A DNA stretch of 60,619 bases, the filler included. It is 8 parts of 8 records of this genome, joined end to end, with 100 filler letters (N's around TTAATTAATTAA, not from the genome) between each part and the next. Parts side by side here need not be neighbours in the genome. Positions count along the whole stretch, not along the records: positions 26,662 to 34,762 come from SRR31147125_77052; 7 more parts are not named here. The stretch is one strand, 5' to 3'. Positions 6,513 through 53,228 of this stretch are shown piece after piece. The notes under the pieces were generated by a model. The model worked only from the letters and a program-made list of their open reading frames with translations. It did not search any database and had not been told where the DNA came from. Made by a program: the position numbers and the translations under genes. The first letter of the stretch is position 1. Every line of letters starts with the position of its first letter.

Positions 6513-6612
6513 NNNNNNNNNNNNNNNNNNNNNNNNNNNNNNNNNNNNNNNNNNNNTTAATTAATTAANNNNNNNNNNNNNNNNNNNNNNNNNNNNNNNN
6601 NNNNNNNNNNNN
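6513..6612. other. Artificial contig spacer (N44-TTAATTAATTAA-N44)
   Basis: Identical 100-bp block with stops in all six frames; occurs seven times in the window. Confidence 0.99.
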
Positions 6613-12611: not shown

Positions 12612-12711
12612 NNNNNNNNNNNNNNNNNNNNNNNNNNNNNNNNNNNNNNNNNNNNTTAATTAATTAANNNNNNNNNNNNNNNNNNNNNNNNNNNNNNNNN
12701 NNNNNNNNNNN
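12612..12711. other. Artificial contig spacer
   Basis: N44-TTAATTAATTAA-N44. Confidence 0.99.
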
Positions 12712-18189: not shown

Positions 18190-18289
18190 NNNNNNNNNNN
18201 NNNNNNNNNNNNNNNNNNNNNNNNNNNNNNNNNTTAATTAATTAANNNNNNNNNNNNNNNNNNNNNNNNNNNNNNNNNNNNNNNNNNNN
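18190..18289. other. Artificial contig spacer
   Basis: N44-TTAATTAATTAA-N44. Confidence 0.99.
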
Positions 18290-21785: not shown

Positions 21786-21787
21786 TG

Positions 21788-24700
21788 TTATCTCACAATA
21801 ATTAGTTTTTTCCACAATTTCATGTTATCTGCTTTTAATGTCACCAGGTATACACCACTACCGGTCTTGCGGCCTGAATCCAGTTGACCGTTCCAGTATA
21901 AAGTGCTCCAACCATTGGTAAAATATTCATCCGTCAGTTTGGTGATAAACCGTCCGGCTACATCATACACATTCATTTCAACTGGTCCGGCATGGCTCAG
22001 ACGGAAATTTATCTCAACAGCATCTTCCGAATCGATTCGAAATACATTGCGGTCGAGATACATATCCTCACTATCCCGAAATGTCACCCGGTCTTCGGCC
22101 ACACCTTCAATGCCCCGTTCGCTGCGGGCATGAAATTCAAAAACCACGTCCTCCTGATCCTCTGGGGTCACCAGATTTGGATATTTGTACCACTCGTCAA
22201 GGTCGTACCAGACACCCGGTTGAAGCGGGAATATGTTATGAAAGAATTCCTTGTCAATGTCACCATTCGGCCAGATAACCCAGATTTCCCAGTCAGAGAC
22301 GGGAACCGGTACCTGGATCCGAACCTGCACACTGTCGGATATATCAACAACGGGGGGATTGACTTCTATCAACGGAGTAAAGGGAGCGGGTTGCCGGATG
22401 ATATTAAAGACCGGCAGAGTGGAGGAATTGTTATTTTTATTTTCCGGATTTTCGTTTTCAGCACTGACAGAAACTATGTTTAGCATCTGGTTCGTGCCGA
22501 TGGGCATCAGAGCCGGAACCGTGGCATCGAATTGAAACCGTACGGTTGTTAAAGCCGGAATAGATCCCAGGTTCCAGAAAATCGTGTCACCTTCCACCCG
22601 TGTGGCTTGCGGTACGATAGTCGGAATATCGAGAGTGGCATCGAATATGTTCCGGACAACCACATTTAATGCATCGGATTGGCCATTATTCGTCACGTCA
22701 ATGATATAGGTATAGGTTTCACTTTCGCGCACATATTTGAGCGAATCACCAGCGCTGATGGCAAAAGAATCGGTTATTGCTTTTTGAACAACAACCAGAT
22801 CCACGTTTTCTTCGACGACGGTGGTGTCTCTGGCTGCCAGGGCGTAAACCATATCTGTGGCGCTGTTATTGTCCGGTGTTGTATCCTGCAAAGCAACTAT
22901 ATAACTGTTGTTTTGCAGCGGAAACGGGTAAAATGGCAGGGAATCGCTGACCATCACCTGGAAACTCACGCTCCATTCCTCGCCGACAGTAAGACTGTCA
23001 ATAAGCCAGAATGTGGAATCCAGATCCATGCCAATGGGACTCATGGATAGATCCATCAGCTTTACAGAGTCGGGTTGGATATGAGTTACGCCGATGTCAT
23101 AAGCTGAAACAGGGCCGTTATTTATAACAGTTATGGTGTAATTGTAATTTTCACCGGCAAGAACTGCTTTTTCAGTTTGGCCATTGATTAGAGTTGTGGT
23201 ATCTGTTGTAGCCACGACCTGTATAGCCAGATCGGTGTTGGCAGGAGGTGTTTCCGGTTTTTCAATTACATAAACCAGGGATTCTACAAAATCATTGTCT
23301 GAATTGGAATCCAATTCCGCGCTAACCGATGCCGAGCCTTGCAGTTCAAAGGGGAGAACCTCAAAGGGGCCAACTGCTCTGGCATCAATGTTAATGTCAA
23401 TGGATGTATTGGGTGATAGCGATGCTATATTCCATACAAGCGTGTCTGCTCGCGCAGGACTCGTTGTTGCCAGGCTTGTGGACACAATCTCGACAGAATC
23501 CGGTTTTACAAACCAGATGCTGAAATCTGTGGCAGTACCCGGTCCGTCATTGGTCACATTCAGGGTATAGCTATAAATCTCATCCTCGTAAACCGCGTCA
23601 GCGGTGTCATTTGCGACGATGTGAAAATGATCGGTGTTTTCCTCCAGTGTCAGAGCCAGATCAAAAATGTTCGGCTCGGCCTGAGGTTCGAGGACATAGA
23701 CAATGGCTGTTGCCTCATTATTATCCGCTGTTGTGTCCTGCTCAGAGATAACCCGCGCGTCGCTTTCTAACGGAAACGGGTAGGTGGCAAAAGAGTCAAC
23801 AGGTGACGCCACGATTTGTACAACAAATGAGTCACCCACATCCAGATATTCGAGGTTCCAGATTAATGTATCACCATTTTGCAAATCCGGTTCAAAATTA
23901 AAGTTATCAATATTAACAGAATCCGGCATAATCAGGGTGACCCGGGTTTCCAGTGCCGGATCCGGTCCCAGATTGGATACGATTAGCTCGTAATGAATGT
24001 CCTGACCAGGCAGAGAGGCTGGCAATGTATCACCTTCGATAACATAAAAGGTATCTGCTTTGGCATCAAAGGTGAGTTTCAGGTCGATATAATCTATATC
24101 CGGTTGTTGTGGCGGTTCGAGGACATAGACGATGGTTTCTGCCTGATTATTATCCTCTGTTGGATCATTTTCAGTAGAAACGCTGGCATCACCCGGAAGC
24201 GGATAGGGGTAGGACGTAAAGGAATCAACAGGAGAGGCTACGATTTGTACCTCAAATGGTTGACCTACATTAAGTGAATCCAGGTTCCAGATTAATGTGT
24301 CTGCTACCTGTGTATCCGGTTCTACGCTGACACTTTCAATATTAATCGAATCAGGCAGAATCAGGGTGACCCGGGTTTCTTGTGCCGGGTCCGGGCCCAG
24401 ATTGGATACAACGAGATCATAATTGATGGCCTCGCCAGGCAAAACAGCGGGTAAGGTATCTCCGGATATAATATGAAATGTATCGGTTTTTGCAACAAAC
24501 TCGATTGCCACATCGGAATTTATCACGATTGGTGGATGAAAAATAAAAACCGTATCTGTTACGGTGTTATTAGCAAGGGAGGTGTCATTGTCAGCGGTGA
24601 CCGATCCTGTGGTGATCACAAGGGAATCTGTCTCAGCGACCGGGTCTTTTAAGCTGGCAACGATTCTTATCTTTGTGCTATCCAGCGGTGCCAGGGAACC

Positions 24701-25896
24701 TGCATTCCAGGTAATAGTATTGCCTGTTATTTCGATCAAAGCCGGATCAGAAGATAAAAACAAGATAAGGTCGGAAAGTTCATTTTGTACGATCACATTT
24801 TCAGCAATGCCCGGGCCATTGTTTGTCACTACCAGGTCGTAATAAACCGTATCTGAACCTGCAACAACCAGGGTATCCGGATTTGATTCCAGTGAAAGTG
24901 AAATGTCGGCAGGAACGTTCGTTAAATCTCCGTTCACATACACCAGCACAGAGTCCTGATTGTTCGACAGATCCGTGTCATTGGAATCGATCAGGGTGGC
25001 GACATTCATGAGCGGAGTAAATCCATCCGGCATGGTAAGCGGCACGATACCCTCATAAAATACGACAAAGGAATCAGACGGGGATAAATCGGGCACAGAC
25101 CAGATGATCCTCCTGTTCTCTCTTTCGAGCGGTTGGACTGAAAAAGCGGTTAGATCCAGGGAATCCGGTACGGTATTCACGATCCTGGCAAAACGCATTT
25201 CATTTTCTGATTCATTCCTTATGGTGATTTTATATTCGACTTTTTCTGTTGGATACAGGACACCGTGCTCTTCCGAATTGACCATCTCAACTCTGGGAGG
25301 AAAGGCATCTATGGTTAAAACTCCGTCAATGAGTGGCTCTGCCACAACGCGAAGGCTATCGAGAATACGGAGGCTTTCAACGTTGATCAGGTCAATGGAA
25401 TCCCCGACGACAAACTGAGGATACTGCTCAGAAATCATGGCATAGTGATGCAGCCAGATGGTGTTTTGTCCACTCTTCAGGTAGAATAAACCGGAATCGC
25501 GCCAGAATACTGTATTGAGAGTATCGATGGGTTGATCCGTTATGTGATGCGGTGTGCCTGGAATATCCGGGACCACCTTGTAGGAACCGGCATTGGAGTC
25601 TGACGGTGTGCTGATCGTGCCATCCTCATTCACAACAGTTAAATAGTAGGTTTCATTTGGCTGTTCATCGCCGCTGTCATACCACATATGAGGGAAAATA
25701 CGATAATAACCCTCGTATTCGACGTTCACGGTGATAACCTCTTCATTCATACGAGATTCTCCCTGATCGGTACGGATGCTGATTATGCTTGGGAGTGTGT
25801 AATCCATGACCGGTTGAACCTGCGCGAAAACATGGATAGGGAAGAGAAAAAAGCGGCTAAAATGGCAATTCCCAGAGATTCTTTGAATTTTGTCAT
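21788..25896 (-). CDS. Large acidic surface protein with seven DUF11 Ig-like repeats and a C-terminal FlgD-Ig/CTD-like domain (frameshift in the signal peptide at the A-run 25847-25852)
   Basis: Repeated Y.L.V.N.GP..A...D....NN units; C-terminal VYDVAGR..L...WNG....G....SGVYLV...KKLIIVR; adding one base restores MTKFKESLGIAILAAFFLFPIHVFA-Q. Confidence 0.85.
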
Positions 25897-26561: not shown

Positions 26562-26661
26562 NNNNNNNNNNNNNNNNNNNNNNNNNNNNNNNNNNNNNNN
26601 NNNNNTTAATTAATTAANNNNNNNNNNNNNNNNNNNNNNNNNNNNNNNNNNNNNNNNNNNN
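26562..26661. other. Artificial contig spacer
   Basis: N44-TTAATTAATTAA-N44. Confidence 0.99.
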
Positions 26662-26693
26662 TTTTTCCTAAGCCGGACCATCAGACCAGGCGA

Positions 26694-26723
26694 TGTAAAC
26701 GATCTTCCCTGAAAACGTTTACA
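26694..26723. promoter_or_regulatory. LacI-family operator-like palindromes (upstream pair)
   Basis: TGTAAACGATCTTC (26694-26707) and TGAAAACGTTTACA (26710-26723), with the central CG typical of LacI/Cra/CcpA sites. Confidence 0.6.
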
Positions 26724-26865
26724 GAAAAATTGATTAATCCGCCGTCATGTTCCCAGATACAGGGCTTTTTAAAAATTACCTATTCAGCGTCAACCAATTA
26801 AAATACATAGTAAATTTTTAATTTTACGGTCCAGCATCATTTTTTGAGCAAACGTTATTTTTCCC

Positions 26866-26907
26866 TTGACAACCCCAAACCCTATAAATACATTGTAAAC
26901 GATTACC
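26866..26907 (+). promoter_or_regulatory. Sigma70 promoter with overlapping LacI-type operator
   Basis: TTGACA (26866)-17 bp-TACATT (26889), followed by TGTAAACGATTACC (26894-26907). Confidence 0.7.
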
Positions 26908-26973
26908 AAAATTAATCAATGGATGTTTCCCATCCCAAGACGTTATTGAAATACCGCAACCAGGAGGACTATT

Positions 26974-28353
26974 ATGTCAAGTAATCAGTTTAAGGTCGGC
27001 GTCCAGTCATTTGGCAGATTTCTAAGCGGCATGGTTATGCCCAACATTGGCGCATTTATCGCCTGGGGGCTGATTACAGCCTTGTTTATTCCCACAGGCT
27101 GGCTGCCCAACGAAACACTCTCAGCCCTTGTGGGCCCCATGATTACCTATCTGCTACCGCTATTGATCGGGTATACCGGCGGTAAAATGGTGGGTGGCGA
27201 ACGGGGGGCTGTGGCAGGAGCGGTAACCACCATGGGCGTCATAGTCGGCAGCGATATCCCCATGTTCATGGGCGCGATGATCGCAGGCCCATTAGGCGGC
27301 CTGGCCATTACCAAATTCGACGACATGGTTCACGGAAAAATCAAACCCGGATTTGAAATGCTGGTGAACAACTTCTCCCTGGGCATTATCTCCATGATCA
27401 TCGCCCTGCTCGCCTATGCCGTCATCGGCCCTGTGGTGGCCTCCCTGACCCAGACCCTGGCCGCAGGCGTGGGATGGATTGTGGACAAATCGCTCCTCCC
27501 CCTGGTGTCCATCATTGTTGAGCCTGCAAAAATTTTATTTTTAAACAATGCCATCAACCATGGCGTGTTTACCCCCCTGGGAGCGGAACAGGCCTCAAAA
27601 GTCGGGTCCTCCATCTATTATCTTATTGAAACCAACCCCGGTCCCGGACTGGGCATCCTCCTGGCATACATGGTCGTGGGCAAGGGCACTGCGCAAAAAT
27701 CAGCCTATGGTGCCTCCATCATCCATTTTCTTGGTGGTATCCATGAAATCTATTTTCCCTATATCTTAATGAAACCCAGACTGGTGATTGCCGTGATCTG
27801 CGGCGGCATGGTCGGGGTCGGGTTTAACATGATCACAGGCAACGCCCTGGTAGGCCCTCCGTCTCCCGGGTCTGTGTTTGCGCTGACCCTGATGTCCACA
27901 AAGGGAATGGGCATTCTCCTGACGCTGGGGTCCATCGCCATATCTGCCGGGGCTTCTTTTCTGGTGGGTGCGGTCATCATCCGCAAGGACGCCCTGGAAA
28001 GTGATGATCTGGAAGCAGCCAAAGCCGCTGTGGCCTCAAACAAGGCCCAGGCAAAAGGCCAGGCAGCACCGCTGGTTCCCGGCATTATCCGTTCAATTAT
28101 CGTGGCCTGTGATGCGGGCATGGGATCTTCGGCCATGGGTGCCACAGTGCTTCGGGGTAAAATTGAAGCAGCCGGCCTGGATATCAAGGTGGCAAATGCC
28201 GCCATCAACGATCTGAAAGAGGCTGACATCGTCATTACCCAGGATGAATTGACTGACCGGGCAAAGGCCAAACTGCCAGGGGCCCGGCATTTCAGCATTG
28301 ACAACTTTATGAATTCAGGATTTTACGACGAACTGGTTGCCAAACTGGTCTAA
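26974..28353 (+). CDS. mtlA: PTS mannitol-type transporter EIICB
   Basis: VQSFGRFLSGMVMPNIGAFIAWG, LNNAINHG, GGIHEIYFP; EIIB ACDAGMGSS. Confidence 0.93.
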   Translation: MSSNQFKVGVQSFGRFLSGMVMPNIGAFIAWGLITALFIPTGWLPNETLSALVGPMITYLLPLLIGYTGGKMVGGERGAVAGAVTTMGVIVGSDIPMFMGAMIAGPLGGLAITKFDDMVHGKIKPGFEMLVNNFSLGIISMIIALLAYAVIGPVVASLTQTLAAGVGWIVDKSLLPLVSIIVEPAKILFLNNAINHGVFTPLGAEQASKVGSSIYYLIETNPGPGLGILLAYMVVGKGTAQKSAYGASIIHFLGGIHEIYFPYILMKPRLVIAVICGGMVGVGFNMITGNALVGPPSPGSVFALTLMSTKGMGILLTLGSIAISAGASFLVGAVIIRKDALESDDLEAAKAAVASNKAQAKGQAAPLVPGIIRSIIVACDAGMGSSAMGATVLRGKIEAAGLDIKVANAAINDLKEADIVITQDELTDRAKAKLPGARHFSIDNFMNSGFYDELVAKLV

Positions 28354-28430
28354 CCGTCTGCGGCATTAAACGAGCAGGTGCTTGCCCGGCCTGCTCCCAA
28401 ACCAATCCAGGTCTTAGGGGAGAAATCCTT

Positions 28431-31039
28431 ATGTCGTTTTTAAAAAAATTGATGGGTGGGGGCAAAAAACAGCAGGAGAATGACACACCGCCGGCACCTG
28501 TCCCAGAGGAAAATAGCCAGGCGGAAAATATCCTGAAAATCAATCCGGACCAGATTATCCTTAACGCCGGGGCAACTTCAAAAACGGAGGTGCTTGAACT
28601 GATCGCCCAAAACCTGCGCGCCCAGGGCCGGGTCAAAGGGGACTATCTGGCGGCATTGCAGGCCCGGGAAGAAAAGGTGTCCACCTATCTGATCAACGGG
28701 GTCGCCATCCCCCACGGGGTCAATGAGGCAAAGGACCAGGTGGTTCAAACCGGGGTCTTCATCGTCCAGATTCCCGGGGGTGTGGTCTGGAACGACAAGA
28801 AAGATCTTGTTCGTCTTGTTGTGGGTATTGCCGCCAAGGGCAAGGACCATCTGGACCTTCTCCAGCGCCTGACCACCGTGGTCATGGACGAGGAGTTGGC
28901 CCACACCCTGGGCACCACCACCGCCAAACAGGACATCCTCACGGCATTGGGAGCCCGGACAACAGACCCGGCCGACACCCATCAGGAGGATTATCCCATT
29001 GCTGCCCAGGCAGAGGTGGTGGATGAGGCAGGCATGCATGCCCGCCCGGCAAGCCTGATATCGGAGCAGGCCACCCGGTTTTCAGGAACAGATATTCTCA
29101 TCCGGAACCAAAAAAATCTGCCAATGCAAAATCCATGGCCTCATTGCTTGCCATGGGGGCTGAAAAAGGGGACACCCTGTCTGTTTCGGCAAAAGGGGAT
29201 GAGGCTGAGGCCGCTGTAGACACCCTGGCCAATATGATCAGCCAGGGCCTGGACAATGATGACCAGGAGAACAATGCCTCTTACCAGCCCCTGACCGTAT
29301 TGGCAGCCCTGCCCGATGTGGTGTGCAACGCCACCCTTAAAGGCTCGGCCGCCTCTCCGGGAATCACCATGGCACCGGCCTTTTGTTTAAAAGCCGGCAA
29401 AATGAGATTTGAACAAGAGGCCCAAGACCCTAAAAAGGAATCCAAATTGTTCAGTTCGGCCCTGTCCGAGGCGGCCCGGCAATTGGACGAACTCAAGGCC
29501 AGTCTCCAGACGAGAGCCCCCAATGAGGCCGCCATTCTCCATGCCCAAAAACAGCTGCTTCAGGATGAACTGATGCTCACGGACAGTGAACAATACATCC
29601 TAAAGGGAAAAACTGCGGCATGGGCCTTTCACCAAGCCATTGAGACCCAGGTGGCTGCTTTGAAAAAAGTGGACAATGAACGCCTCCAGGCCAGAGTCGC
29701 AGATCTCATTGATGTACGGGACCGGGTCCTGGCCTTAATGGTCCCGGCCATATCTGCCGTGGACTATCCCACAACCGATTTCATCCTCATGGCAAAGGAT
29801 CTGACCCCCTCCCAGACGGCAGGCTTAAGCGGCCTGAAGGTTCAAGGCATCTGCACGGAACGCGGCGGCCCCAACAGCCATATGGCCATTCTTGCCAGGG
29901 CATTGGGCCTTCCCGCAGTGGTGGGCCTGGGAGAAGGGGCCTTAGAGGGCATCGCAGGCGGAGAAACCGCCATTGTGGATCCCCAGGCCTCGGCCCTGTA
30001 TATTGGGCCGGATGAGGCCACACGGGAAAATTGTGTTAAATGGATCGCCCAATGGCAGCAGATTCGCAAGGCCGAAGGGGCCCAGAAACACAAACCCGCC
30101 ATGACCGTGGATGGCAGGCACATTGATGTGGTCTGTAATATCGCAAGCCCGGAGGATGCCCCCATTGTTCTGGAAAACGGGGGCGAAGGGGTCGGGCTGC
30201 TCAGAACGGAATTCCTGTTTGAATCCAGTCCTTCCGAACCCACAATAGAGGCCCAGACCGAGGCATTAAAAGCAGTGGTCAAGGTACTTGGCAGTCGCCA
30301 GATCATTGTGCGCACGGCAGATATCGGCGGTGACAAACCCGTCTCCTGGATGCATATCCCCCATGAAAACAATCCCTTTTTAGGGATGCGGGGCATAAGG
30401 CTTTCATTTAAATACGAAGATATGTTCAGACGCCAGTTGGAAGCCATTTACCGCACGGCAGCCTGGCAGATAGAGACCCAGGGCGACACCGGCCTGCACA
30501 TCATGTTCCCCATGATTGCCAGAATGTCGGGGTGGCAAAAGGCCAGGGATATTGCCCAAAGCGTCCGGGAACAGGTCAATGGGCCGAGACTGCCCCTGGG
30601 CATCATGGTTGAGGTGCCCTCCGCCGTTATGACTGCGGAACATCTGGCCAAAGAGGTGGATTTTTTCTCCATCGGTTCCAACGACCTGACCCAATACACC
30701 CTGGCCATAGACCGCCTCCATCCGGATCTGTGCAAAGAGGCGGACAGCTACCATCCCGCCCTGGTCAAGATGATCAAGATGACCGTTGACGCGGCAACCG
30801 CCCATGGCAAGTGGGTGGGGGTTTGCGGAAATGCAGCGGCCAACCCTAACCTTGCCACCCTGCTGGTGGGCCTGGGAGTCAAAGAGCTTTCCGTAAGCCC
30901 TGCCAATGTGGCTGCGGTAAAAAATATTATCCGGGCCGTGAACTATGAAAAACTTAAGGCAAAGGCCAGCAAAGCCTTGCAAATGGAAAGTTCCGAAGCG
31001 GTAATGGAACTATACAAAAACAACCAAGACCTGTTGTAA
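28431..31039 (+). CDS. Multiphosphoryl transfer protein EIIA-HPr-Enzyme I fusion (frameshift at the A-run 29110-29116)
   Basis: EIIA VAIPHG; HPr GMHARPA then ANAKSMASLL in the shifted frame; EI GGPNSHMAILAR, GLLRTEFLF, SIGSNDLTQY, GVCG. Confidence 0.9.
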
Positions 31040-31073
31040 CACCCTAGGGTGCAGGTTGAAAAAAGGAAGCCCC

Positions 31074-32810
31074 ATGACCAACCAATATGAAAAATATCAA
31101 CAGCTTGCCCATGCGTTGCCGGCCACAACCCAAACCTGGAACCTGTACGGGGCCGGCATGGAGAATATCGGCAAAGGGGATCAGCCCGAAGCCTTTGACA
31201 TTCCTGAGCCGGGACCCGGACAACTGCTGGTCCGGATGGATGCTGTGGCCCTGTGCTTTTCAGATGTAAAAGTGATCAACCAGGGCAGAAAGCATCCCAA
31301 ACTCTACAACCGGGATTTGACAAAAGAACCCACCCGGCTGGGCCATGAAGCCGCCTTGACCATCATCAAGGCAGGCCGGGATCTGGAAAAGGAATTCAAG
31401 CCGGGTCAACGCTATGCCATGCAGCCGGACATCTACCAGGAGGGTAAAAGCACGGCCTACGGCTACACCATCCCCGGCGGTCTGGTGCAATACCACCTTA
31501 TCGGACCTGAGGTCCTGGACACCGATGCCGGATCCTGCCTGCTCAAGATTTCAGACCGACTGGCCTATGCCGAAGCCGCCCTGCTGGAACCCTGGGGCTG
31601 TGTCTGGGCAGCCTATACCCAGCGCCGACGCCTTGAACCCAAAGAAAACGGGGTCATGTGGATCAAAGGTCATAACGGCGATGACAAGACCTACGCCTTT
31701 TCAAAGGGGCTTGATGCGCCGGCAACCGTAATATTGACGGATGTGCCGGAGTCGGTTCAGGTCCTGGCCCAGAGTCATGCCCGAAACCTGGTGATCTGCA
31801 ACGGAAGCCATGGAACGGATCCCAAGGCCCTGGCCGATGAATTCACCAAGGGTGAGGGGTTTGACGATGTGGTGATCCTGGATCCTCGATCGGCTGAGGA
31901 ATTGACCCAAATCGCCCAACATGTGGCCAGGCGCGGCACCATGAACATGGTGGGACAAACAAAACTGGACGGACAGGTGGAGGCGGATGTGGGCCGGCTG
32001 CACTACGACTATCTGGCCTTTGTGGGCAACCCGGGAAATGATATTTCCGATTCCTACGGATTTGAGCGCAACCGCTGCGACCTGCGCAAAGGCGGCCTGG
32101 CGGTATTTGTGGGATCCGGCGGCCCCATGGGTCAAATGCATGTCCAAAGGGCCATTGAAAAAAAAGAGGGACCTGCCACGGTCATTGTCACAGATATCAA
32201 TACCCAGCGCCTTGCCGAGATCACCCAGAGATTCGCCCCCCTGACCCAGGCCAACAATTGCCGGCTGCTCACCTTCAACCCCATGGAAAATGAACAGGGC
32301 CTGGTGGAATTTGTCATGGACGTCAGCCAGGGCCGCGGGGCCGACGATGTGGTGGTCTGCGTTCCCAATGCCCAGATCATGGCCGAGTCTGCAAGTGTCC
32401 TGAAAGAGGACGGCATGCTGGTTCTTTTTGCCGGGGTTCCCAACGGCACCCTGGCCCCCCTGGATTTCAGCTCGATCTATCTGGGCAATGCCCAGTACAC
32501 CGGAACCTCGGGCCTGACCATTGAAGACCAGACCGTTGTCATGGAAAACGCCCTGGAGGGCAATATTGCCCCGGCCGTATGCGTGGCAGCCATCGGCGGG
32601 ATAAAATCCGCCAAAAAAGGCATCCAGGCCATGATCGATGCCCGTTATCCGGGTAAAATCCTGATCTTCCCCCAATTGGAAGACCTGGATCTGATGGGGC
32701 TGGATCAATTGGCTGAAAAACTGCCCCAGGTGGCCCAGAAACTTGGGCCGGGCAACACCTGGACCCATGAGGCAGAAAAGGCTTTGTTCCAAACCCTATT
32801 GAAAGGATGA
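31074..32810 (+). CDS. Zn-dependent MDR dehydrogenase, L-sorbose-1-phosphate reductase (SorE/YggP)-like, with internal duplication
   Basis: ALCFSD, GHEA and LLEPWGC zinc ligands; VGSGGPMGQMH nucleotide-binding motif; two G.G.DDVV segments; ATG 31074 after AAGGA. Confidence 0.75.
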   Translation: MTNQYEKYQQLAHALPATTQTWNLYGAGMENIGKGDQPEAFDIPEPGPGQLLVRMDAVALCFSDVKVINQGRKHPKLYNRDLTKEPTRLGHEAALTIIKAGRDLEKEFKPGQRYAMQPDIYQEGKSTAYGYTIPGGLVQYHLIGPEVLDTDAGSCLLKISDRLAYAEAALLEPWGCVWAAYTQRRRLEPKENGVMWIKGHNGDDKTYAFSKGLDAPATVILTDVPESVQVLAQSHARNLVICNGSHGTDPKALADEFTKGEGFDDVVILDPRSAEELTQIAQHVARRGTMNMVGQTKLDGQVEADVGRLHYDYLAFVGNPGNDISDSYGFERNRCDLRKGGLAVFVGSGGPMGQMHVQRAIEKKEGPATVIVTDINTQRLAEITQRFAPLTQANNCRLLTFNPMENEQGLVEFVMDVSQGRGADDVVVCVPNAQIMAESASVLKEDGMLVLFAGVPNGTLAPLDFSSIYLGNAQYTGTSGLTIEDQTVVMENALEGNIAPAVCVAAIGGIKSAKKGIQAMIDARYPGKILIFPQLEDLDLMGLDQLAEKLPQVAQKLGPGNTWTHEAEKALFQTLLKG

Positions 32811-32814
32811 TCCC

Positions 32815-33742
32815 TTGATTTATACACTGACACTGAACCCGGCAGTAGACCGGGAGCTTCTGGTCGATGAGATCATTTTCAGCACCGTGTTAAGGGCTGG
32901 GGAGTTCAGGGTGGACTGCGGGGGCAAAGGATTTAACGTCAGCCGGATGCTCAAGGCATTGGACCGGGAAAGCACGGCCCTGGGGTTTGCAGCAGGCAGA
33001 GCCGGAGAATTTCTCAATGACGCCTTAAATGACCTTGGCATCCATACGGACTTTCTCTGGGTTAAAGGGGAGACCCGCACCAATGTCAGCATTGTCAGCA
33101 CCCGGGACGGGCAATATGTCAAAGCCAACGAGCCTGGGCCCACAATCTGTCCAGCCGACGCCCGGGCATTATTGGACAAGATAAACCACCTGGCCCGGGA
33201 AAATGACCTCTGGGTTCTGGCCGGAAGTCTGCCTCCGGGAATCCCACCGGATATTTACAGCCAGATGATTCAGATTCTGAAAACAGCCGGGGCCAGAGTG
33301 ATTCTTGATACCAGCGGCCAGAGCCTTGGGGCAAGCTGCAAGGCCGGACCCTTTCTGGTCAAGCCCAATGACGAGGAGGCCCGGGCGCTAACGGGGATGA
33401 CGGCAGAGACCCCCAAGACCTGGTCCGGGCAGGCCGGATCATCCAGGGTATGGGCCCTGAACATGTGGTGATTTCCATGGGCAAGGCCGGTGCCATACTG
33501 ATTTCCGGTGATGGGGCCTGGATGGCAAAAGCCCCGAAATCAAGGAACAAAATCCCATTGGTGCCGGGGATTCCATGGTGGGAGGCCTTGTCTGGGCGAT
33601 CAGCCGGGACATGGGCCCGGAGAAAGCCCTGGGCTACGGCATTGCCTGCGGTGCAGCCACCGCCGCCCAAAAGGGAACCGGTATTGGTTCCCGGGAGCTG
33701 GTGGACACACTTCTGCCCCAGGTCAAACTAACAAAACTTTAA
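32815..33742 (+). CDS. 1-phosphofructokinase/PfkB family kinase (frameshifts ~33410-33414 and ~33536)
   Basis: TLTLNPAVD, GGKGFNVS, GSLPPG, LVKPN; shifted frames give MGPEHVVISMG and NPIGAGDSMVGG, ending at 33742. Confidence 0.85.
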
Positions 33743-33751
33743 GGGGGGATC

Positions 33752-34744
33752 ATGGTGGATTACAAAAAAATGGGACTGGTCAATACCCGGTCCATGCTGA
33801 ATCGTGCTGCCACAGGCGGCTATGCTGTGCCAGCCTACAATTTTAACAACATGGAGCAACTCCAGGCCATTGTCCAGGCCTGCGTCCAAACACAGTCTCC
33901 GGTGATCCTCCAGGTCTCATCCAGCGCCAGAGACTACATTCATCCCACGCTGTTAAGGCACCTGGCCCGGGGGGCGGTCGAGTATGCCCAGGCCCTTGGC
34001 AGCAGCATTCCCATTGCCCTTCATCTGGACCACGGCAGCTCATTTGAACTCTGCTGTGACTGTATTGAATCGGGGTTTTCATCGGTGATGATCGACGGGT
34101 CACACCTTGACTATGAATCCAATATTGAACTGACGGCAAAGGTGGTGGGCTTTGCCCATGAACACGATGTAACCGTGGAAGGCGAGCTGGGGGTCCTGGC
34201 CGGTGTGGAAGACGAGATTGTGGCCGAAACATCCACCTATACCGACCCCTGGCAGGTCCAGGACTTTGTCAACAGAACCCGGGTGGATTCTTTGGCCATC
34301 TCCATCGGCACCTCCCATGGCGCCAATAAATTCACCCCGGAGCAATGCACCCGGAACCCTGAGGGCATCCTTGAGCCCCCGCCCCTGAGGTTTGACATCC
34401 TAGAAGAGATCGAAAAAAAGCTGCCCGGGTTTCCCATTGTGCTTCACGGGGCCTCCTCGGTTCCCGGAGAAGCGGTCAAGGCCATCAACCAATACGGGGG
34501 CAGACTGGAACATGCCATTGGTATCCCAGAAGAACAGCTGAAGAAAGCAGCGGCCATGGCTGTGAGCAAAATCAACGTGGATTCCGACGGCAGGCTGGCC
34601 ATGACCATGGCCGTCAGAAAAATATTTTCAACGGCGCCGGAACAATTTGACCCCAGAAAATATCTGGGTCCTGCCCGGGACGCATTAATTAATTTATACG
34701 CCTATAAAAACAAGCATGTACTGGGATCCGCAGGCCAGGCATAA
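33752..34744 (+). CDS. fba: Class II fructose-1,6-bisphosphate aldolase
   Basis: LHLDHG, SVMIDGS, VEGELG, IGTSHG, LHGAS, KINVDSDGR. Confidence 0.94.
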   Translation: MVDYKKMGLVNTRSMLNRAATGGYAVPAYNFNNMEQLQAIVQACVQTQSPVILQVSSSARDYIHPTLLRHLARGAVEYAQALGSSIPIALHLDHGSSFELCCDCIESGFSSVMIDGSHLDYESNIELTAKVVGFAHEHDVTVEGELGVLAGVEDEIVAETSTYTDPWQVQDFVNRTRVDSLAISIGTSHGANKFTPEQCTRNPEGILEPPPLRFDILEEIEKKLPGFPIVLHGASSVPGEAVKAINQYGGRLEHAIGIPEEQLKKAAAMAVSKINVDSDGRLAMTMAVRKIFSTAPEQFDPRKYLGPARDALINLYAYKNKHVLGSAGQA

Positions 34745-34762: not shown

Positions 34763-34862
34763 NNNNNNNNNNNNNNNNNNNNNNNNNNNNNNNNNNNNNN
34801 NNNNNNTTAATTAATTAANNNNNNNNNNNNNNNNNNNNNNNNNNNNNNNNNNNNNNNNNNNN
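34763..34862. other. Artificial contig spacer
   Basis: N44-TTAATTAATTAA-N44. Confidence 0.99.
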
Positions 34863-35717
34863 GTTCTTGATACGGCTAAAGTGGTGGCAGCCGTTTTAAA
34901 TAGTGAGCAGACGCTGAGTCAGATTATTGGCAACGACAAGCTAAATGGACGTAAAATATGGCTTGCATGCCTGCCCACCACATCGGGGACTGGTAGTGAA
35001 GTATCGCCAAATGCGCTTTTGTTCGATGAGTCGGATCATCAGAAAAAAGCCGTAATTAGTCCTTATTTAGTTCCCGATGCTGCCTACGTGGATCCAAATC
35101 TTACTCTTTCGGTACCTTCACACATAACAGCTGCGACCGGCTTTGATGCAATGATCCATTGTCTTGAGGCTTACACAAATATCAATGCTCACCCACTTGT
35201 TGACCTTTTCGCCCTGGAAGGCGTCCGATTGGTCAGTGAAAATCTGCAGCGAGCGGTAATAAATTGCAGGGATATTGAGTCGAGAATAAATTTGGCACGC
35301 GCGAGTCTTTATGGTGGCAAATGTCTTGGACCGGTTAATACTGCTGCTGTTCATGCGCTTGCTTATCCGCTTGCAAACAGGTTTCATATAACTCATGGTT
35401 TGTCTGTGGCAGTCCTGTTGCCTTTTGTTTTTGAGTATAATATTTCGGCCAATCCCAAAAAACATGCAGATGTTGCTTTGGCGCTGGGTGCACAGGCAGG
35501 ATCTTCCGATGAAGAAACTGCGTTATATGGTGTTGAGAAAATAAAAAAGCTAATGACAGCCTGCGGTTTATCGTTAAAACTTGCTGACTTTATCTCCTTA
35601 AATGATTTACCCTCAATAGCAGAGGATGCCATTAAAATCGAACGATTGTTGAACAATAATCCTAGAAAGATGAATAAAACAGATATTATTGATATTTTCC
35701 AAAACGCATTGAGATAG
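34863..35717 (+). CDS. Iron-containing (type III) alcohol dehydrogenase, 5'-truncated
   Basis: (V)LDTAK at the contig edge; PTTSGTGSE, DAMIHCLE, HALAY, HG metal ligands. Confidence 0.9.
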   Translation, partial: VLDTAKVVAAVLNSEQTLSQIIGNDKLNGRKIWLACLPTTSGTGSEVSPNALLFDESDHQKKAVISPYLVPDAAYVDPNLTLSVPSHITAATGFDAMIHCLEAYTNINAHPLVDLFALEGVRLVSENLQRAVINCRDIESRINLARASLYGGKCLGPVNTAAVHALAYPLANRFHITHGLSVAVLLPFVFEYNISANPKKHADVALALGAQAGSSDEETALYGVEKIKKLMTACGLSLKLADFISLNDLPSIAEDAIKIERLLNNNPRKMNKTDIIDIFQNALR

Positions 35718-35727
35718 AGGCGAAAAT

Positions 35728-36639
35728 TTGAACAGATTAAAAAAGAAATATTCAGGTGTAATCGTTCCGATGGTTACGCCATTCGACAATGACGGACGGA
35801 TTGATTTATTAGCAACAGAACGCATTACCGAGTTTTTACTGGAAAATGGAACATCTCCGTTTGTGCTTGGGACCACCGGAGAATCTGCATCCATCCCGGA
35901 TGAATATCGACTCAATTTTGTAAAAAATGTTGTTAAAATAACCGCCGGAAGATCGTTGACTTTTGCGGGAATTGCATCCAATTGTTTTGAGTCGTCTGTT
36001 AATCTTGCCAAACATTATTTTGATTTTGGAGTGGATGCAGTTGTTGCTCATCTTCCGGGTTATTATCCGCTAAATAAGGATCAGATGCTATCTTATTTTG
36101 AATCTCTAGCTGATGCTTGTCAAGGACCGATGATTTTATATAATATTCCCAAGACAACGCATCATTCCATTCCGTTGGACCTTATCGACCATCTTGGTCA
36201 ACATTCGAATATTTGTGGATTAAAAGATTCAGAGCGAGATTTGGCAAGACTCGAAAAAGCAATTTCTATGTGGAAAGAAAGACCGGATTTCAGTTTCCTG
36301 ATTGGTTGGGCAGCGCAGTCATCATATGGGCTGTCATTGGGTGCTGACGGTATTGTTCCAAGTACAGGAAATATTATACCGGATATGTACAGCAAAATTT
36401 ACAACGCCGTGTTAAAAGGTGATTCTTCAACCGCAGATTTATATCAGCAGAAAACCGGTAAAATTTCACAAATTTATCAAAAGGACAAGATTCTCAGTGA
36501 ATCGATTCCCGCTTTAAAAATCATCATGAATTATCTTGGCTTGTGCGGCCCCCATGTGTTGCCTCCCCTAATAGAGCCGTCTAACGAGGTTCGGGAGGAT
36601 ATTCACAAAAAAATGAAAGTATTGGGATTAATGTCCTGA
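35728..36639 (+). CDS. DHDPS/NAL superfamily class I aldolase
   Basis: MVTPF, GTTGES, ILYNIP (Tyr), GLKDS (Schiff-base Lys). Confidence 0.9.
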   Translation: MNRLKKKYSGVIVPMVTPFDNDGRIDLLATERITEFLLENGTSPFVLGTTGESASIPDEYRLNFVKNVVKITAGRSLTFAGIASNCFESSVNLAKHYFDFGVDAVVAHLPGYYPLNKDQMLSYFESLADACQGPMILYNIPKTTHHSIPLDLIDHLGQHSNICGLKDSERDLARLEKAISMWKERPDFSFLIGWAAQSSYGLSLGADGIVPSTGNIIPDMYSKIYNAVLKGDSSTADLYQQKTGKISQIYQKDKILSESIPALKIIMNYLGLCGPHVLPPLIEPSNEVREDIHKKMKVLGLMS

Positions 36640-36680
36640 CGAATGTGCAGCCGCTTGAGTCATAGGAACAGGATCATCAA

Positions 36681-37724
36681 ATGATAGACAAAAATAATAA
36701 ACCTTTAATTGGCATCACTATGGGTGACCCGGCTGGAATTGGCCCGGAAATCGCACTAAAGGCGCTTCAAAAAAGAAAAGTGAATGAGATTTGTCGTCCT
36801 ATAATAATAGGCGATGCAAAAGTACTTGAATCGGCTGCTGAATTCACTGGTTTGACTGTTCAAATTAGACCGATATCATCTATCGAAAAGACCGATTTCA
36901 ATGCCAATATTATTAATGTGTATGATTTGAATAATGTCGATCTCTCAAGAATTTCGTTTGGTCAAATATCTGCGCATGCCGGATATGCTGCTTATGAAGC
37001 TATTGCAAAGGTCATTCAACTGGCACTGGATAATAAAATCGATGCAACAGTGACAGGCCCGATAAACAAAGAGTCTATTCACCTGGCCGGTTTTCCTTTC
37101 CCCGGGCACACAGAGATATTTGCACACTTTACCAATTCACCGGATACTGCCATGCTGCTGGTCTATGACAATCTTCGGGTCATTCATGTTACGACTCATG
37201 TTCCATTAAAAAGTGCATGCGAATTAATCAAAAAGGAGCGAATTGTCATAGTTATTCGGTTATTAGCAGATGGTTGTCAGACCTTGGGAATTGCTTCGCC
37301 AAAAATCGGTGTTGCAGGTCTCAATCCCCACGCCAGCGACGGTGGTCTGTTTGGCTCTGAAGAGCAAGAGGAAATATTACCGGCTGTTAATGAAGTCATA
37401 TCACTTGGTATTGATGCGGAGGGACCGATTCCGCCTGATTCTCTTTTCCCTAAGGCGATTGGTGGGTATTATGATGGTTGTGTTGCTATGTACCATGATC
37501 AGGGGCATATTCCCTTCAAGTTGGTGGGATTTTCGTGGGATCAAAAATTGCAGTGCATGTCCAGCGTTAAGGGTGTTAATGTGACACTTGGACTTCCTAT
37601 TATCCGAACATCTGTGGATCACGGGACTGCATTTGAGATTGCCGGGAAAGGAATGGCCAGCGAAGACGCAATGGTGCATGCAATAGAGTACGCAGTAAAA
37701 ATGACAAGAAATAAGCTCCACTAA
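36681..37724 (+). CDS. pdxA: PdxA family (PdxA2-type) 4-phospho-tetronate dehydrogenase
   Basis: MGDPAGIGPE, GHTE, LNPHA, YHDQGHIP, RTSVDHGTA; adjacent to a DUF1537 kinase. Confidence 0.92.
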   Translation: MIDKNNKPLIGITMGDPAGIGPEIALKALQKRKVNEICRPIIIGDAKVLESAAEFTGLTVQIRPISSIEKTDFNANIINVYDLNNVDLSRISFGQISAHAGYAAYEAIAKVIQLALDNKIDATVTGPINKESIHLAGFPFPGHTEIFAHFTNSPDTAMLLVYDNLRVIHVTTHVPLKSACELIKKERIVIVIRLLADGCQTLGIASPKIGVAGLNPHASDGGLFGSEEQEEILPAVNEVISLGIDAEGPIPPDSLFPKAIGGYYDGCVAMYHDQGHIPFKLVGFSWDQKLQCMSSVKGVNVTLGLPIIRTSVDHGTAFEIAGKGMASEDAMVHAIEYAVKMTRNKLH

Positions 37725-37741
37725 AAAACGTAAGAACTTTT

Positions 37742-38893
37742 ATGATTGCTGTGCTTGCAGATGATTTTACCGGTGCCGCAGAAATTTCGGGTATCGCTAT
37801 CCGCTACGGATTAAAAACTGAACTACAGACTGATATTCTGTCGGATCCCCAATCGGACATTTATGTTATTGATACAAATACCCGTTCTGCTACTAAAGAC
37901 GCTGCCATGGCAACATTTGACAGGATCCTTCCCAGACTTCTCAAGTTGGAGCCACTTTGGATTTTCAAAAAAACCGACTCTGTTCTTCGCGGTCATGTTA
38001 TCCATGAATTAATTTCGACCATGAAAGCATGTGGAAAGAATATGACACTTTTAATCCCTACGAACCCTGAAAAAGGTCGCATCATTCACAAAGGGAACTA
38101 TTATATTAATGGAGAATTGTTGCATAAAACGACCTTTTCTGATGATCCTGAGTATCCAGCACGCACAGCTGATGTATTAAAGTTATTGGGAAGTCCTGGT
38201 GAAATTAAAACAAGTGTTTTAAAACCAGACCAGCAATTGCCTTCAAAGGGAATTGTTGTTGGGGAGACAAGAAACCGGAAAGAATTGGAGCAATGGACTA
38301 AAAAATGGGAAAGCAGCATGCTTCCGGCAGGAAGTGCAGAATTTTTCGAAATGCTGTTACAACAGCTCGGATATCAGGAAAATATATTCAATTCAATTCA
38401 AAAATTATTAACAGGTAAAAGGGTGCTTGTCATCTGGGGTAGCAGTCTTTTAAAAACGAGCAAGACATATGACATTTTTCGAAACGCAGGATTTAATATA
38501 GTCGAAATTCCGGTACCACCCAATGCGATAGAATTGATTAAAGAATCGGTTTTGACTGAAATGGTACGCCTCGTTTCTGAAAAAATGTCGCGCAATGAAA
38601 GAGTGGTATTTTCATTTAAAAGAGAGCAAATTAAAAAAACAACGGTCAATCCGTCAATTTCAGAAATATCCGGAAATCTTGTTAAGGAGATTGTGCAACG
38701 TTTTGATATTAAAGAATTGCTTATTGAAGGAGGCTCAACAGCATCGACTATTGTGAGGCAATTAAACTGGGAGCGATTTACACCAGTTCAGGAAATTTTA
38801 CCGGGTGTTGTCCGGCTCCAGGTAGAGTCCCACCCAGGTGCATATCTAACCGTAAAACCTGGAAGTTATGATTGGCCGTCGAATCTGATATAA
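37742..38893 (+). CDS. Four-carbon acid sugar kinase (DUF1537; DtnK/DenK-like)
   Basis: ADDFTGA, KKTDSVLRG, EGGSTA, VKPGS. Confidence 0.9.
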   Translation: MIAVLADDFTGAAEISGIAIRYGLKTELQTDILSDPQSDIYVIDTNTRSATKDAAMATFDRILPRLLKLEPLWIFKKTDSVLRGHVIHELISTMKACGKNMTLLIPTNPEKGRIIHKGNYYINGELLHKTTFSDDPEYPARTADVLKLLGSPGEIKTSVLKPDQQLPSKGIVVGETRNRKELEQWTKKWESSMLPAGSAEFFEMLLQQLGYQENIFNSIQKLLTGKRVLVIWGSSLLKTSKTYDIFRNAGFNIVEIPVPPNAIELIKESVLTEMVRLVSEKMSRNERVVFSFKREQIKKTTVNPSISEISGNLVKEIVQRFDIKELLIEGGSTASTIVRQLNWERFTPVQEILPGVVRLQVESHPGAYLTVKPGSYDWPSNLI

Positions 38894-38920
38894 AAGTGGA
38901 TTAAACAAGAGGAACGTATT

Positions 38921-40486
38921 ATGCAAACGCCATCGCTGCACTTGTTCGATTATTTTGTTGTTATTATATCATTAGTTGTTGCTTTGGGTATTGGTATATC
39001 ATTCTCCCGCCGTCAAAACAGTACAAATAAATATTTTGCCGGAGCAGGTTCAATCCCGTCCTGGGCTGTCGGGATGTCCATTTTGGCTACACTTATTAGC
39101 AGCGTTACATTTCTTGCCTACCCCGGAGAAGGCTACTCCTCCAACTGGATTTTACTGGTTCAGGGATTGATGGTTCCAATCGTTTTGGTATTTCTGGTGC
39201 GTTTTGTAGTGCCACTTTACCGAAACGTGATCGGTTTGAGCGCCTATGAATATTTCGAAAAGCGGTTTGGCTTTCTGGCCCGTTTGTATGGATCGCTCGC
39301 CTTTATCTTAACCCATTTCTCAAAAATGGGAACTGTTTTTTTTCTGCTCGGTTTGGCCCTCTCAAAAATGATAGGAGTTAACACGTACATAATTATTTGG
39401 GTGCTTGGAATTGCCATTATTTTTTTAACACTGATAGGCGGAATTGAAGCCGTGATCTGGCTTGATGTTATCCAGGGCTTTATGTTAATTGCAGGTGGTT
39501 TACTGTGCGTCGCTGTTTTATTATTCCGACCAGAGGGAGGGCCGGCTGCCATCTTTCAGATAGCTTTTGAAAATAACAAAATTGGGTTCAGTCCCTATGA
39601 ATGGGACCTTACCAAACTGACCTTTCTAGTGATGGTCCTGAATGGTATCTTTTACGCTATTCAAAAATATGGAACCGACCAGACGATTATACAGCGATAC
39701 CTCACTGCGCGATCAGATAAAAGTGCAATCAAAGCAGCCTTAATGGGAGTATTTTTGAGCGTACCTGTTTGGACTTTGTTTATGTTTATTGGAACCGCAC
39801 TCTTTGCGTATTATAAAATAACGGGAGCATCGCTGCCCGCTGATATTCGACCTGATGCTGTATTTCCATTATTTATCATGACTGAATTGCCTGTTGGATT
39901 AACAGGTTTGATTCTGGCTGCGCTAATGGCTGCGGCCATTTCGAGTCTCGATTCCGATTTGAATTGCCTTGCTGCAATCGGTGTGGACGATTACTATGCC
40001 AGGATTAAACCCAATAGTACAGATGAGCAGAGACTGAAGGTAGGGCGTATACTGGTGGCACTTTCAGGCATTGCCGCAATGATCGTTGCGACGCTGTATA
40101 TTAAAGCGGGAAACAAAGGTGTATTGGGAATTGTATTCGGACTATATGCTATTTTTTCCGGCGGCATTGCCGGTTTGTTTTTACTTGGATTATTTAGCAG
40201 GCGTGCAAACAAATCCGGACTTTATGTGGGTATTGTTGCCAGCGTTTTATTTACGGCATGGGCTGTTCTTACATCTACAAAGTTTTCAATTGGAGGAGAA
40301 TCGCGTGTGATATTGGATTTAGGACGATTCAATTTTTCCCATCACAAGTATATGCTCGGTGTTTACAGCCATTTGATTCTGTTTGGTGTTGGTTATATTG
40401 CCAGTCTCTTTTTTAAACGTGAAAAACCTGATGAAAGCCTGACCATTTATGGCTGGTTAAAATGGAAAGAAAAAATCACCAACTAA
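38921..40486 (+). CDS. Sodium:solute symporter (SiaT-like subgroup)
   Basis: SILATLISSVTFLAYPG, SAYEYFEKRFG, GGIEAVIWLD, DQTIIQRYL, AAISSLDS; many TM helices. Confidence 0.9.
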   Translation: MQTPSLHLFDYFVVIISLVVALGIGISFSRRQNSTNKYFAGAGSIPSWAVGMSILATLISSVTFLAYPGEGYSSNWILLVQGLMVPIVLVFLVRFVVPLYRNVIGLSAYEYFEKRFGFLARLYGSLAFILTHFSKMGTVFFLLGLALSKMIGVNTYIIIWVLGIAIIFLTLIGGIEAVIWLDVIQGFMLIAGGLLCVAVLLFRPEGGPAAIFQIAFENNKIGFSPYEWDLTKLTFLVMVLNGIFYAIQKYGTDQTIIQRYLTARSDKSAIKAALMGVFLSVPVWTLFMFIGTALFAYYKITGASLPADIRPDAVFPLFIMTELPVGLTGLILAALMAAAISSLDSDLNCLAAIGVDDYYARIKPNSTDEQRLKVGRILVALSGIAAMIVATLYIKAGNKGVLGIVFGLYAIFSGGIAGLFLLGLFSRRANKSGLYVGIVASVLFTAWAVLTSTKFSIGGESRVILDLGRFNFSHHKYMLGVYSHLILFGVGYIASLFFKREKPDESLTIYGWLKWKEKITN

Positions 40487-46627: not shown

Positions 46628-46727
46628 NNNNNNNNNNNNNNNNNNNNNNNNNNNNNNNNNNNNNNNNNNNNTTAATTAATTAANNNNNNNNNNNNNNNNN
46701 NNNNNNNNNNNNNNNNNNNNNNNNNNN
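46628..46727. other. Artificial contig spacer
   Basis: N44-TTAATTAATTAA-N44. Confidence 0.99.
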
Positions 46728-53128: not shown

Positions 53129-53228
53129 NNNNNNNNNNNNNNNNNNNNNNNNNNNNNNNNNNNNNNNNNNNNTTAATTAATTAANNNNNNNNNNNNNNNN
53201 NNNNNNNNNNNNNNNNNNNNNNNNNNNN
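53129..53228. other. Artificial contig spacer
   Basis: N44-TTAATTAATTAA-N44. Confidence 0.99.

Follow-up and report, generated by a model that had tools for sequence, protein, structure and literature searches.

A candidate mannitol phosphotransferase operon predicted to enter glycolysis through fructose 1-phosphate

How might a bacterium that imports mannitol through a phosphotransferase system (PTS) deliver it to glycolysis when the dehydrogenase encoded beside the transporter does not belong to the MtlD family? This question is raised by a five-gene operon in a stretch of DNA of 60,619 nucleotides, filler included, that is referred to here as the window. Mannitol is a major storage carbon of algae and fungi and, to our knowledge, its PTS-dependent catabolism in bacteria is taught as one route, in which MtlD yields fructose 6-phosphate. 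The operon encodes a mannitol-type EIICB, an EIIA-HPr-EI fusion, a long zinc-dependent medium-chain dehydrogenase/reductase (MDR), a predicted 1-phosphofructokinase (1-PFK), and a class II fructose-1,6-bisphosphate aldolase (Fba). We propose, with a probability of roughly 0.6, that it is a self-contained mannitol PTS cassette that enters glycolysis by way of fructose 1-phosphate and not fructose 6-phosphate.

The five genes are all on the plus strand and are separated by 4 to 77 bases; their positions and family labels, as given in an earlier note on this DNA, were borne out by Pfam and NCBIfam (Table 1). The EIICB scored above both mannitol cut-offs (TIGR00851 [mtlA], 500.1 versus 468.4; PRK15083, 692.7 versus 589) and is 62% identical to Escherichia coli MtlA over 467 columns and 50% identical to the cryptic paralogue CmtA; from this homology, its substrate is predicted to be mannitol. 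In the fusion protein, Pfam placed EIIA_2, HPr, and the N-terminal, mobile, and C-terminal domains of the phosphoenolpyruvate (PEP)-utilizing enzymes, in that order, and the top model for the EIIA portion was the fused fructose IIA/HPr model PRK11109 (134 bits). Relatives of the MDR begin at an ATG equivalent to position 31074, which gives a protein of 578 aa in the window. The first 218 aa of the kinase, before a frameshift, by themselves give 209.6 bits on the 1-PFK model TIGR03828 (cut-off, 292). Fba scored above the fructose-1,6-bisphosphate aldolase equivalogs (PRK07084, 565 versus 511; TIGR01859, 351.9 versus 343.05) and below the cut-off of the tagatose-bisphosphate aldolase model TIGR01858 (239.7 versus 443.55).

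Table 1. Features of the operon contig and joints between contigs, with positions counted along the whole window
Feature	Position	Strand	Details
AT-rich noncoding leader	26662..26973	+	Contig start; presumed promoter region
Mannitol-type PTS EIICB, 459 aa	26974..28353	+	Pfam PTS_EIIC 19-278, PTS_IIB 375-449
EIIA-HPr-EI fusion (multiphosphoryl transfer protein)	28431..31039	+	Pfam matches on two frames
Long Zn-MDR dehydrogenase	31056..32810	+	584 aa from TTG; ADH_N and ADH_zinc_N
PfkB-family kinase, predicted 1-phosphofructokinase	32815..33742	+	Three frames; intact orthologues pass TIGR03828
Class II fructose-1,6-bisphosphate aldolase (Fba), 330 aa	33752..34744	+	
Linker, left boundary of operon contig	26562..26661	.	
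Linker, right boundary of operon contig	34763..34862	.	
All linkers	6513-6612, 12612-12711, 18190-18289, 26562-26661, 34763-34862, 46628-46727, 53129-53228	.	N run, TTAATTAATTAA, N run

In the route that we propose, PEP would phosphorylate the EIIA-HPr-EI fusion, from which the phosphate would pass to the MtlA-type EIICB; the latter, whose family is clear and whose substrate is a prediction, would take in mannitol as mannitol 1-phosphate. Oxidation of D-mannitol 1-phosphate at C5, the MtlD reaction, yields fructose 6-phosphate, and oxidation at C2 yields fructose 1-phosphate. The 580-aa MDR, using NAD(P)+, would oxidize C2, next to the phosphorylated C1, to give D-fructose 1-phosphate, which the 1-PFK, a family assignment made on the intact orthologues, would convert to fructose 1,6-bisphosphate. 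In this clade only, the class II aldolase of the operon would then cleave the bisphosphate to triose phosphates. The MDR would act as an adapter that joins a mannitol transporter to a fruBKA-like fructose 1-phosphate pathway, taking the place of MtlD.

The earlier note had described the dehydrogenase as an MDR of the SorE/YggP type that carries a GGPMG motif. The motif is present, as VGSGGPMGQMH, and YggP is the closest E. coli relative; however, the protein has an extra degenerate Rossmann-like domain and is therefore not a plain SorE/YggP. YggP (425 aa) aligns to it twice, with residues 19 to 321 matching MDR residues 47 to 332 (28% identity) and residues 158 to 413 matching MDR residues 328 to 578 (24% identity). 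YggP residues 158 to 321 consequently match two successive regions of the MDR, and these regions match each other (24% identity; E value, 4e-5); the glycine motif is absent from the first and kept as GSGGPMG in the second. Because YggP aligns twice and the matched regions resemble each other, the predicted layout is a GroES-like catalytic domain, a degenerate Rossmann-like domain (approximately residues 190 to 330), and an NAD(P)-binding Rossmann domain with the GSGGPMG motif. The protein shares with the SorE/YggP type the combination of ADH_N and ADH_zinc_N, a glycine motif that is intact, and conservation at the positions where zinc ligands are expected, but at 578 to 584 aa it departs from the single-Rossmann architecture of approximately 410 to 425 aa. 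Residues C67, H97, E98, and E178, which, going by MDR enzymes, we take to be zinc-site positions, are invariant in a 15-sequence alignment (75% mean column identity) and align to the C, GHE, and E of YggP. In an AlphaFold2 model of the MDR (pLDDT, 71.4; pTM, 0.54), the inserted domain was confident. Foldseek searches with this model returned only ordinary MDRs of approximately 350 aa and multidomain synthases, among which no precedent for a tandem-Rossmann layout was evident, and a sequence search of the PDB returned only generic MDRs, the best being a sorbitol dehydrogenase over residues 39 to 131.

Proteins of this kind are numerous: 3148 were found at an E value of ≤0.001 among 8000 candidates scored, and clustering at 50% identity gave 260 MDR clusters at an E value of ≤1e-30. 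The best 120 homologues are 557 to 591 aa long, are 60 to 82% identical to the window MDR, and come from marine Gammaproteobacteria, Desulfobacter-like metagenome-assembled genomes (MAGs), Chloroflexi MAGs, and Cohaesibacter; Agarivorans, Psychromonas, and Photobacterium rosenbergii are among the cultured carriers. Named members belong to the Gammaproteobacteria, Desulfobacterota, and Chloroflexota, an Atlas look-up suggested the Planctomycetota as well, and several members carry the JGI label "L-sorbose 1-phosphate reductase." In its own lineage the MDR is rare, being found in 1 of 401 sampled genomes of the phylum (the central genome itself) and in 3 of 161 in the family. The evidence leans toward the view that these 580-aa tandem-Rossmann proteins constitute a large family of mannitol-1-phosphate 2-dehydrogenases, which, with an MtlA-type PTS and a 1-PFK, would form a second, MtlD-independent route. 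A plasmid search found one distant long MDR only (37% identity), on plasmid p380k of Deinococcus sp. AJ005 (L008, 11195 to 15949), where it sits between a short-chain dehydrogenase/reductase and an FGGY kinase. A gene for a GntR regulator is also present there, and neither PTS genes nor a 1-PFK lie nearby; this MDR probably represents a subfamily with a different substrate.

The operon is not confined to the window. The order EIICB, EIIA-HPr-EI, MDR, and kinase is common to four deltaproteobacterial MAG loci, and Fba comes next in three of them; the sequence of the other, L001, ends within the kinase region. Furthermore, two near-closed genomes of the same family, with largest contigs of 5.1 and 5.6 Mb, have intact operons (L093 and L094). 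The fusion gene is a single open frame of 907 aa in L001 and gives one high-scoring segment pair (HSP) in L093 and L094, and the kinase is an intact frame of 309 aa in L001 and L003. On TIGR03828, these two kinases scored 326 (L001) and 329 (L003), above the cut-off of 292; on the tagatose-6-phosphate kinase and Pfk-2 models, respectively, they scored 153 and 159 (L001) and 160 and 156 (L003), and the scores of the operon kinases on the two models together span 143 to 160. A divergent gene for a LacI-family regulator is present in L001, L003, L093, and L094 but not on the window contig, and L003 also has a glyceraldehyde-3-phosphate dehydrogenase gene downstream.

At the level of whole genomes, the operon EIIC was the sole match to PF02378 in four of the five genomes with an intact operon (G001, G002, G003, and G427), and the operon kinase was the sole match above the TIGR03828 cut-off in all five. 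Since those four genomes encode no other PF02378 EIIC, they offer no fructose PTS that would supply the 1-PFK, whose substrate must therefore be provided by the MtlA-type EII together with the MDR. The earlier note had raised the prospect of an mtlD elsewhere in the genome. PF01232, the mannitol dehydrogenase family, was found in none of six relatives' genomes, all of one lineage: 0 of 4 in G001 to G004, which are MAGs of unstated completeness, and 0 of 2 in the near-closed genomes. The same search matched 7 of 14 well-known genomes. In one relative (G004; L004, 9411 to 13706), the operon has decayed: EIICB is reduced to approximately its first 92 residues and EI to approximately its last 70, tblastn recovers the MDR as three pieces and Fba as two, and no PF02378 EIIC was found in that genome.

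The linkage of these genes was also examined across metagenomes. Searching metagenome contigs with the MDR alignment yielded 565 confirmed relatives; the best 80 loci (785 kb) were retained, and their MDRs group into 69 clusters when the threshold is 90% identity and into 24 when it is 70%. A 1-PFK homologue lies downstream on the same strand, with its start within 700 bases, in 63 of the 66 loci that have at least 900 bases of downstream sequence, and in one of the three exceptions the kinase is encoded at another place in the locus. Of the 50 loci for which 2.5 kb or more of upstream sequence was available, 43 have PTS genes ahead of the MDR, and 4 more loci have them in another position; where both flanks were available, 39 of 43 loci had both PTS genes and 1-PFK. 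E. coli MtlD found no tblastn match in any of the 80 loci. The pairing of MDR and 1-PFK is thus nearly invariant across the 69 clusters, and because the order recurs in the four genome loci, in the two near-closed genomes, and in most of the 80 loci, the gene arrangement is far beyond chance.

These loci also bear on the identities of the kinase and the transporter. Among the complete downstream kinases, 53 of 59 pass the 1-PFK cut-off (TIGR03828, 292 bits), as do the intact orthologues of the window kinase, which supports the assignment of the kinase to the 1-PFK family in the earlier note; the remaining 6 scored 241 to 291 bits on the 1-PFK model and matched no tagatose-6-phosphate kinase or Pfk-2 model at an E-value limit of 1e-55. 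After removal of 18 of 38 EIIC frames, which had stops because the HSP spanned separate genes, all 20 stop-free frames matched only the mannitol EII models TIGR00851 and PRK15083, 10 of them above the TIGR00851 cut-off. Fba was found in only 1 of the 80 loci. The conserved core is therefore a supply of polyol phosphate, mostly a PTS, together with the long MDR and 1-PFK; of the five-gene route put forward in the earlier note, this core is supported, and Fba is an addition made in one clade.

Three loci without PTS genes retain the MDR and 1-PFK (L018, L061, and L063). In L018 (516 to 7117), the pair is preceded by an FGGY-family kinase; in L061 (399 to 10669), by an ABC sugar transporter, an ordinary Zn-MDR, and an Fe-dependent alcohol dehydrogenase (Fe-ADH); and in L063 (2573 to 10324), by ABC components with two xylose isomerase-like TIM barrels. 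In a further set, represented by L074 (10059 to 15373), in which the MDR is approximately 50% identical, a GH2 glycosidase gene lies upstream of the pair, and genes for a histidine phosphatase, a GFO/IDH/MocA oxidoreductase, a NanE-like epimerase, and an FGGY kinase follow it.

We infer that the MDR oxidizes its substrate at C2, and the comparative data favor this position over C5 because the operon kinases are 1-PFKs by curated thresholds and because, among the relatives, the operon EIIC is the sole PF02378 EIIC in four of the five genomes with an intact operon, the kinase is the sole match above the 1-PFK cut-off in all five, and PF01232 was found in none of the six genomes searched. The fructose 1-phosphate interpretation of the earlier note was accordingly supported by the in silico analyses, in that every test able to break it came out in its favor. 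We judge it distinctly unlikely that the MDR is instead a nonhomologous replacement for MtlD that oxidizes C5 to give fructose 6-phosphate, with the PfkB-family kinase serving as a 6-phosphofructokinase. GatD provides a parallel, as a Zn-MDR that oxidizes a PTS-made polyol phosphate far from the phosphate, and the PfkB family includes Pfk-2, on whose model the operon kinases still score 156 to 159 bits; however, those scores are far under the Pfk-2 cut-off of 353, and the same kinases are above the 1-PFK cut-off. Moreover, since PfkA-type phosphofructokinases are already present in all four of the relatives' genomes searched, a fructose 6-phosphate route would have no need of an operon kinase, and the near universality of that kinase (63 of 66 loci) would be superfluous; the classical E. 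coli mtlA-mtlD-mtlR operon does without one. A different polyol handled by the same architecture, for instance D-glucitol bearing a C1 phosphate or some less common compound, which the MDR would convert to a ketose 1-phosphate ahead of the kinase, is also unlikely in our estimation, although less so. Of the 20 EIICs from diverse loci, only 10 score above the cut-off of the mtlA subfamily, E. coli CmtA, which is 50% identical to the window EIICB, is still termed cryptic, and the FGGY kinase and ABC variants show that more than one kind of uptake system can supply the MDR and kinase core. On the other side, the window EIICB is nearer to MtlA (62%) than to CmtA (50%) and above both mannitol models, the kinases pass the fructose-1-phosphate kinase equivalog, and the aldolase passes the fructose bisphosphate models but not the tagatose-bisphosphate model. 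From the families of the kinase and the aldolase, the product should therefore be fructose 1-phosphate, and the substrate should be mannitol 1-phosphate or glucitol 1-phosphate. We accordingly hold the general scheme, in which a polyol phosphate is oxidized to a ketose 1-phosphate that feeds 1-PFK, with more confidence than the full route from mannitol to fructose 1-phosphate, which we regard as somewhat better than an even bet.

The possibility that the operon is dead or an artifact in the window organism, mis-binned or decaying, with a nonfunctional EI fusion and kinase, has to be considered with the three frameshifts that the copy contains within 8.1 kb. The EIIA-HPr-EI gene has one break, not noted in the earlier note, in the HPr domain (approximately 29109 to 29116, at an A7 run at 29110 to 29116), and the kinase gene has two, near a C5 run (33410 to 33414) and near 33526; all three are single-base losses relative to the aligned relatives. 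The GC content of the contig (0.551) is also unlike that of most of the other window pieces, and the relative G004 has lost most of its EIICB and EI, with its MDR and Fba recovered in several pieces. However, because each break is a one-base loss next to a homopolymer run, as is typical of sequencing error, such errors are the most likely cause and fit better than decay; outside the breaks, the coding sequence is 74 to 87% identical at the protein level to intact orthologues. The operons are, furthermore, intact in L001, L003, L093, and L094 regardless of the state of the window copy. We therefore consider a dead or artifactual operon very unlikely.

Several points nevertheless weigh against a mannitol route through fructose 1-phosphate. 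The choice between C2 and C5 depends on gene context and on 24 to 28% identity to YggP, an uncharacterized protein, and the placement of the MDR near SorE was made through YggP, JGI names, and published descriptions of the SorE reaction. The AlphaFold2 model is of moderate quality and is weak around the active-site loops. MtlA-family transporters may also carry other hexitols, and D-glucitol phosphorylated at C1 would likewise yield fructose 1-phosphate. One of the five genomes that carry an intact operon (G507) encodes an additional PF02378 EIIC, four of the six genomes in which PF01232 was not found are MAGs of unstated completeness, and the window organism may have an mtlD elsewhere. Finally, with its three frameshifts, the window copy could be a set of pseudogenes.

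The operon combines features of several known systems. Like E. coli mtlA-mtlD-mtlR, it has an MtlA-type EIICB, expected to deliver mannitol 1-phosphate for NAD(P)-dependent oxidation; unlike that operon, it lacks MtlD (PF01232) and has an unrelated Zn-MDR in its place, and operons of its type nearly always have a 1-PFK, while no kinase is encoded in that of E. coli. No protein of the window operon matches the MtlD fold (PF01232/PF08125), and the MDR is thus not an MtlD. The product of the E. coli system is fructose 6-phosphate; that proposed here is fructose 1-phosphate. The fruBKA operons of the Rhodobacter and Pseudomonas type, with the multiphosphoryl transfer protein FruB, likewise place a fused EIIA-HPr-EI beside a 1-PFK that acts on fructose 1-phosphate, but the permease in the window is of the mannitol type and not FruA, and a dehydrogenase lies between the PTS genes and the kinase. 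GatD, the galactitol-1-phosphate 5-dehydrogenase, is a Zn-MDR of approximately 350 aa that acts on a PTS-made hexitol phosphate, as is proposed for the window MDR; it oxidizes far from the phosphate to give a ketose 6-phosphate and is of ordinary length, unlike the 580-aa window protein.

In E. coli K-12, the cryptic cluster cmtB-cmtA-yggP-yggF-fumE-yggC (L006, 5977 to 11331) lies next to fbaA-pgk-epd. This cluster resembles the window operon in that a mannitol-type EIICB (50% identical) is encoded directly beside a YggP-type Zn-MDR, but YggP, still labeled "putative" in RefSeq, is a protein of 425 aa with only one Rossmann domain, and the cluster has no 1-PFK or EI and instead encodes the fructose bisphosphatase YggF and the P-loop protein YggC. 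By analogy, the fructose 1-phosphate logic might extend to cmtBA-yggP. The role of SorE, the L-sorbose 1-phosphate reductase, is described in passages of PMC12817954. As proposed for the window MDR, SorE is a Zn-MDR that acts beside the C1 phosphate of a PTS product; the window protein differs in being approximately 160 residues longer, with the extra degenerate Rossmann-like domain, in its position beside an Mtl-type and not a mannose-type PTS, and in the oxidative direction proposed for it on mannitol 1-phosphate. In the full-text literature, with subscription journals outside its scope, neither a mannitol-1-phosphate 2-dehydrogenase nor an operon of this kind was found described. One sentence in PMC4428132 links mannitol 1-phosphate to fructose 1-phosphate; it concerns an ordinary MtlD and, in the passage in which it stands, looks like a slip. 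A passage of PMC11519228 concerns a separate, archaeal mannitol route through free fructose. These findings point to a cassette that is apparently widespread and that has not previously been described in the literature covered.

If the proposal is correct, the MDR would represent a new enzyme activity, the oxidation of mannitol 1-phosphate at C2, and hundreds of annotations that read "alcohol dehydrogenase" or "L-sorbose 1-phosphate reductase" would need to be corrected. Pathway predictors that call such genomes mannitol negative for want of mtlD would give a different answer, and there would be a simple reason for the presence of 1-PFK in operons that lack a fructose transporter. It would also provide a testable lead, and the first functional hypothesis, for E. 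coli cmtBA-yggP.

The window itself is a chain of eight contigs (5.5 to 11.8 kb; GC content, 0.336 to 0.551) joined by seven copies of a 100-base linker of the form N-TTAATTAATTAA-N, for which the chance expectation is 0. The operon occupies exactly one contig (SRR31147125_77052; 26662 to 34762; 8,101 bases; GC content, 0.551), and the remaining pieces range in GC content from 0.336 to 0.550, a spread that suggests a heterogeneous bin. Because artificial linkers separate the contigs, the flanking genes have no known physical linkage to the operon. The statement in the earlier note that no MtlD-family gene is present on the contig is true, but it carries no weight because the contig is only 8.1 kb long; homologues of the LacI regulator, MtlR, and MtlD were found nowhere in the window, and tblastn with E. 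coli MtlD also gave no match there.

The jump in GC content and the truncated Fe-ADH at 34881 are contig-end artifacts, and an interpretation of the operon as a GC-rich island that had inserted into an Fe-ADH gene was accordingly rejected. On the minus strand of the contig before the operon (18877 to 25807), two large surface-type proteins are encoded, one of 1338 aa with seven DUF11 repeats and the other of 799 aa with matches to CARDB and OmpA; neither is related to the operon. The adjoining contig on the other side (34881 to 40486) opens inside the Fe-ADH gene, of which approximately the first 98 profile positions are absent, and further encodes a DHDPS-family protein, a PdxA-family dehydrogenase, a kinase-like protein with SBD_N and NBD_C domains, and a sodium:solute symporter; judging from these families, it looks like an acid-sugar catabolic cluster.

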